Virus record (IMG/VR): IMGVR_UViG_2908567220_000002
Coordinates: 1 to 64,000 of that record
DNA from: a virus
Taxonomy: Duplodnaviria; Heunggongvirae; Uroviricota; Caudoviricetes
Length of the DNA stretch: 64,000 bases
Strand: one strand, 5' to 3'
The translations under genes and the position numbers were made by a program. Positions 1,179 to 1,969 of this stretch are shown here, piece by piece. The notes beneath the pieces were generated by a model, which was not told where the DNA came from, searched no databases, and saw only the letters and a program-made list of their open reading frames with translations. Position 1 is the stretch's first letter. Every line of letters begins with the position of its first letter.

Positions 1179-1969
1179 ATGAATTTTACGTTTACTGACT
1201 CTGGATACACTGAAACAAATAAAAACAATCCCCCTATCATATTCGTTCATGGATTTTTCATGAATAATGAAATGTTCAAATACCAGTTTGACGAACTAAA
1301 AGAAAAACATAGAGTTGTTTGCATTAATGTTCGGGGTTTCGATGCCCCCTCCGAAAAAACTGAGCCATTCTCGCTCTATGACATCGTTGATGACATTTTA
1401 AACGTCGCAGACTCACTACAACTGGATAAGTTTATTTTAGGGGGGGGATGTCGATGGGGGGGTATATATCATTACGATTTGCCCTGTCACATCCAGAGCG
1501 TTTGTCAGGACTAATCCTTATGGCAACTCAGGTCGAGCAGGACCCGCCAGAAATTGCATCCAGTTATATGGAACTATGTAATGGATGGCATAACTCACTC
1601 ATAAAAGAAGAGATAATATCCTCATTATTACCCGTTTTCTTTGGAAAGAATATCTCTGAAGCAGAGATATGGAGACAAGTATGGCTACGTCATAAACCTG
1701 AAAACATCAAACCAGCTATGAATGCAATGCTGGAGCGAGACGATATTTCAGATAAAGTTCATACGATCAAAGCGCCCACCCTGATTCTTCATGGATCCGT
1801 CGATACAGGAATACCACCGGAGAAAGCTCTTGAAATGCACAAAATGATCCCGCACTCTGAGCTTGCGATTATACCTGACGCCAATCATGCATTGAATGTC
1901 ACACATGCAAAAGAAGTAAATACCATAATAAAAAAATGGTTACAAAAACACACTGAGAGTCAAAGTTAA
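1179..1969 (+). pseudogene. Alpha/beta-fold hydrolase, frameshifted at a G8 homopolymer (1440-1447) inside the nucleophile-elbow codons; AT-rich cargo gene
   Basis: Two overlapping ORFs (1179-1514, 1448-1969); HGFF motif upstream; a G9 tract would restore FILGGGMSMGGYISLRF (G-x-S-x-G); second G7 run at 1456-1462. Confidence 0.6.

Follow-up and report, generated by a model that had tools for sequence, protein, structure and literature searches.

Does an alpha/beta hydrolase gene that is interrupted by a run of eight guanines, immediately in front of the motif carrying its catalytic serine, reflect a sequencing error, a decaying gene or an on/off switch? These three options had been named in an earlier note on the stretch of viral DNA analyzed here (the window, 64,000 nucleotides), which was made from the sequence alone. 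They were assessed by comparing the window with complete genomes, public assemblies and metagenome contigs.

A hydrolase gene split at its nucleophile elbow

The following features define the hydrolase gene in the window.

1179-1969, plus strand: reading span of the hydrolase from ATG 1179 to TAA 1967-1969 (791 nt; 791 mod 3 = 2)
1179-1514, plus strand: ORF of the N-terminal fragment, 111 aa, from ORF analysis (exact product P0002)
1448-1969, plus strand: ORF of the C-terminal fragment, 173 aa, native frame; E24377A and DS26-1 carry it as a CDS of its own
1440-1447, plus strand: first homopolymer, G8, the frameshift site, codons Gly88-Gly89 (direct reading and relatives)
1456-1462, plus strand: second homopolymer, G7, consisting of the last G of the Met92 codon and Gly93-Gly94 (GGG GGG; direct reading)
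1248-1253, plus strand: H24-G25 oxyanion motif, in the N-terminal fragment
1451-1453, plus strand: Ser91 codon TCG, in the 173-aa ORF
1802-1804, plus strand: Asp208 codon GAT, in the 173-aa ORF
1886-1888, plus strand: His236 codon CAT, in the 173-aa ORF

The earlier note had located the break in a homopolymer at the nucleophile elbow, and it lies precisely there: the G8 tract directly precedes the G-M-S-M-G-G elbow (Met-Ser91-Met-Gly-Gly). The two tracts listed above are the only runs of at least seven guanines in the whole 64 kb window. Addition of one G to the G8 tract gives, as had been stated, a 263-aa ORF (...FILGGGMSMGGYISLRF...), and removal of two Gs gives a 262-aa ORF. The 111-aa ORF comprises the native residues 1-89 with the strands up to beta5, followed by 22 out-of-frame residues, and lacks the catalytic Ser. 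The 173-aa ORF, which ends at TAA 1967-1969, begins too late to include the fold's N-terminal half. The window copy thus does not encode a single polypeptide, as Ser, Asp and His are cut off from the N-terminal half at 1440-1447. Neither fragment, one without the Ser and the other without the N-terminal half of the sheet, should be able to act as an enzyme, and we infer that the activity has been lost.

The second tract was also considered as the cause of the frameshift and was rejected, since repair at this position destroys the context of the Ser codon and since close relatives have G7 there whether their gene is intact or broken. In RefSeq, the halves in E24377A and DS26-1 are entered as two 'alpha/beta fold hydrolase' proteins and not as one frameshifted pseudogene (WP_335142876.1 and WP_307670814.1 in E24377A; WP_235834879.1 and WP_235834878.1 in DS26-1).

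Protein family and catalytic residues

The HMM search of the reconstructed protein that had been proposed as a check identifies it as an alpha/beta hydrolase. The repaired protein matches Pfam Abhydrolase_1 with E=1.7e-24 (87.3 bits, gathering cutoff 25.8) and Hydrolase_4 with 74 bits (cutoff 27), and it has 226 relatives in the PDB, the best of which is the esterase 4uhc (E=4e-36). The structures 4uhc and 4uhh, labeled only 'ESTERASE' in the PDB search, presumably represent the cytoplasmic carboxylesterase TtEst of Thermogutta terrifontis. TtEst of this organism is referred to in PMC4655241. The prophage hydrolase aligns with this esterase over its full length and shares the HG motif, the LGG-x-S-M-GGY elbow and the positions of the Asp and the His; no signal peptide is visible in it. 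However, the two are distant relatives by HMMER with many substitutions, substrate preference is not transferable between them, and the hydrolase copy in the window is frameshifted.

All 24 aligned sequences have the same residues at G89, S91, G93, G94, D208 and H236, and H24-G25 is conserved in at least 90% of them. The triad Ser91-Asp208-His236 occurs in canonical order, and the elbow conforms to the pattern Sm-x-Ser-x-Sm. No NCBIfam model scored above its cutoff for the repaired hydrolase. The best models, 3-oxoadipate enol-lactonase PcaD (TIGR02427; 107.5 versus a cutoff of 255.85) and pimeloyl-ACP methyl ester esterase BioH (TIGR01738; 91.8 versus 206.95), agree with it in fold class and triad order and show partial HMM similarity, but the scores are far under the curated cutoffs and the pathway context is lacking, so that the prophage hydrolase is not a member of either family. 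The PHROGs assignment is PHROG 789, a generic 'esterase/lipase', and none of the sources searched gave a name more specific than 'alpha/beta hydrolase'. The gene would accordingly be best described as encoding a putative cytoplasmic serine hydrolase of the esterase-type alpha/beta class, with probable esterase chemistry.

The hydrolase gene is prophage cargo

The flanks of the gene contain the following elements.

951-1178, plus strand: conserved 5' region of the mobile module; blastn matches to relatives in other prophages begin at 951-970
1131-1136, plus strand: perfect TATAAT without a matching -35 element (direct reading)
1170-1173, plus strand: GGAG Shine-Dalgarno sequence (direct reading)
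2117-2149, plus strand: intrinsic terminator-like hairpin, AACCGGCATG-AAC-CATGCCGGTT, with a T-rich tail (sequence scan)

A consensus scan upstream of the hydrolase found no full sigma-70 site; the hydrolase presumably has its own promoter in the region 951-1178. The terminator stem (2117-2139) has 10 pairs, six of them GC, is followed by TTCTTT and lies 148 nt past the stop codon. The earlier note had reported an intact terminator at 2119-2145; the terminator is present, but its stem is placed here at 2117-2139.

The hydrolase locus forms an island of 34-43% GC, compared with 52-57% in the tail genes. Its neighbors are an ORF6N gene at the ompW-side end of the prophage and a convergent tail-fibre assembly gene on the other side. 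The module (951-1947/1985) is found in prophages at ompW, icd, zinT, prfC, dusA and bioA-ybhB, where it adjoins tail-fibre genes. Phage morons are independent cargo transcription units in prophages, for example bor and lom of lambda. The hydrolase resembles them in its position in a low-GC island between the prophage end and the tail-fibre genes, in having its own 5' region and terminator, and in the presence of the module in unrelated prophages at six attachment sites; it differs in that its promoter is only putative. Its classification as prophage cargo, or moron, is well supported, and the original description of an esterase-like cargo gene is upheld.

The deposited phage genome collection contained no DNA match to the module, and a protein search of it returned only relatives of less than 26% identity; no sequenced free phage carrying the module was found in this collection. 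The hydrolase is essentially restricted to E. coli, with relatives of 43-52% identity elsewhere, e.g. on a Photobacterium plasmid.

A second ORF6N copy, partial and frameshifted, is located at about 747-949 on the plus strand; the intact ORF6N gene (1-561) precedes it and the hydrolase follows. This copy, another decayed element at the prophage end, is annotated in E24377A, DS26-1 and others. The neighboring 1474-aa tail protein (3599-8023, minus strand) contains 81-nt (27-aa) repeats of the leucine-rich type at about 3812-6541 and a higher-order duplication of about 1.2 kb, whose segments 3812-4111 and 5027-5326 are 95% identical. In near-identical prophages this protein has 848, 1065, 1388, 1442, 1443, 1469 or 1470 aa, which suggests copy-number variation of the repeats in a probable receptor-binding protein.

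The G8 tract is not a sequencing error

Several platforms are prone to errors in homopolymers, some assemblies are interrupted at the first tract, and an odd length of the second tract occurs on one low-coverage (3x) metagenome contig. The true sequence could on these grounds be in frame (G6 or G9) and G8 a homopolymer miscall in sequencing or assembly, but the same tract is found in two complete genomes, the Sanger-finished E24377A and DS26-1. In an exact-sequence look-up, the 111-aa product of the window (I20) was present on 42 contigs and the E24377A version (T20) on 41; contig counts do not equal independent lineages, and the G8 contigs come from many projects. With the tract left out, seven independent G8 loci in NCBI and Logan assemblies match the first 2,270 nt of the window exactly, and the G6, G7, G8 and G9 genotypes were confirmed in DNA retrieved for 47 loci. 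In all, G8 occurs on an identical haplotype in at least seven independent assemblies (NCBI, ENA, Logan) as well as in E24377A and DS26-1. The lineage-specific substitution I20T, moreover, co-segregates with frameshifted tracts only. This shows that the G8 frameshift is real and heritable. A miscall is extremely improbable, and the option of a sequencing error raised at the outset is effectively excluded.

The native tract is shorter, not longer

Relatives of the hydrolase are present in 29 of 5,426 complete E. coli genomes, ten of which were included in a gene alignment to establish the direction of the tract change. E24377A and DS26-1 are 99.7% identical to the window and share both its G8 and its split gene. 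At 98.8% identity, PapM-36-2 is intact and has G6. The genes of C8 and ST2350 are likewise intact with G6, and their second tract is interrupted (GGGAGGG). More distant alleles (83-89%) are intact and have GGGGGA or GGTGGA, combined with GGGCGGA at the second tract. In this alignment G8 is confined to the window, E24377A and DS26-1, and the intact genes read TTA GGx GGx ATG TCG ATG GG. All intact proteins contain F-[IV]-L-G-G-M-S-M-G-G-Y, and the segment vLGGlSMGGYv of 4uhc aligns to iLGGmSMGGYi. An extra column before the elbow is filled by the G9 product alone among 24 sequences, which extend down to 27% identity.

Because all intact relatives and 4uhc read LGG-x-SMGG, the native tract is, on this comparison, G6 or shorter, and the window carries a +2 expansion. 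The repair by one added G that the earlier note proposed is thus arithmetically valid but historically wrong, as G6 or an interrupted GGxGGx is what the intact relatives contain. By the same alignment, G9 is best regarded as a derived form that is back in frame but has gained one Gly.

Tract length varies among isolates

A comparison of tract length across isolates had been suggested earlier, and it revealed G6, G7, G8, G9 and G10 in public E. coli assemblies. In addition to the G8 products described above, the following alleles were recorded by the exact-sequence look-up.

G6, I20 background: 42 contigs
G7, I20 background: 48 contigs
G7, T20 background: 2 contigs
G9, I20 background: 4 contigs
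G9, T20 background: 1 contig
G8 with a second tract of G6 (P0005), T20: 2 contigs
G10 with a second tract of G8 (P0007; DNA in L065-L068), I20: 6 contigs
G9 with a 16-nt tandem duplication between the runs (P0008), I20: 3 contigs

The product of 263 aa predicted in the earlier note exists, since the G9 alleles P0018 and P0019 encode exactly this protein. G8 and G9 occur on identical 2.6-kb haplotypes of the prophage end, on I20 and again on T20; one G9 contig recurs in 11 samples, and the allele with G10 and G8 was found in at least four samples. Sequencing runs in which alleles were identified include SRR12827233, SRR31050940 and SRR13015774 for G8, ERR12248011 and SRR8723269 for G9, and SRR28813057 for G10 with G8. 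Parsimony on a neighbor-joining tree of 7.1 kb around the gene (46 loci) required 15 tract changes, with a minimum of 3 and a permuted mean of 23.5. The figure of 15 changes is possibly inflated by recombination in the chromosomal flank, and the result from identical haplotypes does not depend on the tree. The second tract is variable as well, with G6, G7 and G8 among isolates, and at 1456-1462 it constitutes one arm of the 16-nt tandem duplication. The tract is demonstrably hypermutable. Slipped-strand mutation, which had been put forward as the cause, is supported by a tract that is polymorphic and homoplasic, although the slippage mechanism itself is deduced.

Several single loci deviate from these patterns. 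L058 has G6 with a second tract of G6, on a contig of 3x coverage. In L017, which has G8, the run is lengthened to G9 by an A-to-G change through which the Met90 codon is lost. L025 and L030 (gene at 6001-6802) combine G7 with a 3' half like that of the C8/ST2350-type allele (266-aa form), a mosaic that is best read as the result of prophage variants having recombined inside the hydrolase gene. Several short-read assemblies break at a distance of 0-3 nt from the first tract or resume approximately 20 nt past the second one (L060-L064; about 1436-1440 and about 1485 in the window), which could be due to dropout of poly-G reads or to mixed lengths within cultures. A variable-gap pattern scan of metagenome contigs gave two hits, too few for an unbiased census of tract lengths, and the same scan of species-representative genomes gave none.

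Origin of the G runs

The four Gly codons of the elbow are all GGG in the window allele, compared with none of the eight other Gly codons, which are GGA or GGT. Relatives preserve intermediates from GGT GGA...GGC GGA through GGG GGA, GGG GGG...GGC GGA and GGG GGG...GGA GGG to GGG GGG...GGG GGG. According to the proposed course of events, synonymous third-position changes would have converted all four codons to GGG in the allele of the ompW-integrated myovirus-like prophage, leaving two uninterrupted runs, G6 and G7, that are 8 bases apart. Replication slippage would then have extended the first run to G7 and subsequently to G8, the state of the window (+2), in which translation leaves the native frame after Gly89 and stops at 1514. 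The tract is still mutating in the E. coli population, in a lineage that appears to behave as a pseudogene under relaxed constraint. Ordinary synonymous substitution probably accounts for the extension of the runs. Misalignment-type mutagenesis at homopolymer borders is an established mechanism, and at the borders of these runs it may have favored their extension. The break sits at the catalytic elbow because four Gly codons cluster nowhere else in the gene, which would explain its position without invoking function.

Translational or transcriptional recoding

Some full-length enzyme might still be produced from G8 by -1 ribosomal frameshifting or by transcriptional slippage on the G run. The zero-frame sequence G_GGG_GGA (1442-1448) fits the slippery pattern X_XXY_YYZ, and slippage by -1 would lead into the native frame downstream, yielding a 263-aa protein with LGGGMSMGG. 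This product would contain the same unprecedented Gly insertion as that of G9. The 92 nt downstream fold no better than shuffled sequences (z = -0.23), and a frameshift-stimulating RNA structure 3' of G8 was rejected on this basis. In addition, the G7 and the G10 plus G8 alleles need different shifts, and intact G6 ancestors need none, so that there is nothing to select for recoding. We regard such rescue of the enzyme as very unlikely.

Decay or switch

Between intact alleles of the family dN/dS is 0.14-0.23, which corresponds to purifying selection; therefore the gene is useful in some settings. The frameshifted alleles differ from this. In the G-rich allele group, five synonymous and no nonsynonymous changes were counted in G6 alleles, compared with one synonymous and three nonsynonymous changes in frameshifted alleles (Fisher p=0.048, with only 9 variants). 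The nonsynonymous changes are I20T, M90V, by which the ATG is also lost, and N235I beside the catalytic His. T20 was never found with G6 in the exact-sequence look-up, and because of this it should have arisen after inactivation. W136stop on a G6 allele (P0022, 11 contigs) is an independent null mutation, and the 16-nt duplication is a further independent lesion. The window copy itself has three synonymous and no nonsynonymous differences from intact PapM-36-2 and no damage beyond the frameshift, which indicates that its inactivation is recent and possibly reversible. L019, a G8 copy derived from a metagenome, also has an indel in or close to the A7 run (1930-1936 in the window), which changes the last approximately 11 residues and the stop and could reflect either continued decay or faulty assembly.

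Maintenance of the poly-G tract as a reversible switch, by which the esterase would be ON (G6/G9) or OFF (G7/G8/G10) in subpopulations, is the adaptive alternative. Near-identical haplotypes differ in tract length in a homoplasic manner, and G8 has repeatedly given rise to in-frame G9, but G9 is rare. Out-of-frame alleles dominate, with index blocks 79 (G7) and 54 + 52 (G8) versus 7 + 2 contigs (G9). Nearly every OFF allele retains an otherwise undamaged ORF past the tract; yet these alleles gather nonsynonymous changes, and other null mutations exist. No G6 revertant was observed among the OFF haplotypes, the nearest G6 allele differing from a frameshifted one by at least 10 SNPs per 7.1 kb, and the only in-frame exit of G8, i.e. 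G9, inserts a Gly that is absent from 22 of 22 homologs. Within a clone the tract is usually stable, as is evident from the seven identical G8 haplotypes and six more on T20. Assembly breaks exactly at the tract could reflect mixed lengths in cultures, but dropout of poly-G reads explains them equally well. The confinement of GGG codons to the tract can also be cited for a switch: with four of four at the elbow versus none of eight elsewhere, it could result from selection for mutability. The repeated origin of G9 from G8 and the one contig in 11 samples could likewise point to selection to restore the frame.

Loci of this class are known among the contingency genes of Campylobacter, Neisseria and Haemophilus. 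In contrast to homopolymer contingency loci, the prophage tract belongs to a cytoplasmic enzyme and not to a surface or modification gene, and it is located in the catalytic motif and not near the 5' end; its in-frame G9 form alters the esterase, and the frameshifted alleles bear marks of relaxed constraint. To our knowledge, E. coli does not have many homopolymer frameshift loci. The G/C tracts of tcfA, bapC and BP3651 in Bordetella pertussis offer a comparison, since there too an intragenic G run of at least eight changes in steps of +/-1 and truncates the protein, is polymorphic between close isolates and appears less stable in longer alleles (PMC1891110). That polymorphism was taken as a sign of phase variation. 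However, as Gogol et al. (2007) pointed out for Bordetella, cross-genome comparison shows that a tract has changed and not its switching rate (PMC1891110), and unlike the Bordetella tracts the prophage tract is known from between-genome comparison alone. A literature search on this hydrolase gene and on poly-G switching in E. coli prophages returned nothing.

Taken together, these data make adaptive phase variation unlikely. The more specific proposal that the double poly-G is a genuine contingency switch is slightly more doubtful still; it would require that G enrichment of the elbow was selected and that the esterase is off in G7, G8 and G10 and on in G6 or in G9 with a tolerated Gly. If true, lysogen subpopulations would have different phenotypes, and the locus would be a rare case in Enterobacteriaceae of a prophage cargo enzyme that varies in phase through a homopolymer. 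The locus is probably a young, recently inactivated prophage moron that became a pseudogene by +2 slippage. Of the two biological options in the earlier note, decay is thus favored by relaxed constraint and additional lesions, whereas on/off switching is not proven.

Implications

Events of this type are well known, and this instance in the hydrolase is undescribed. For annotation, the halves in E24377A and DS26-1 should be treated as one frameshifted gene. Glycine-rich catalytic motifs of the form GG-x-S-x-GG turn into slippage hot spots once their codons drift to GGG. The polymorphism from G6 to G10 is a possible fast-evolving marker in E. coli lineages with the ompW prophage. If the tract switches at a high rate, the hydrolase would stand out in E. 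coli as a prophage enzyme that is, unusually, phase-variable.
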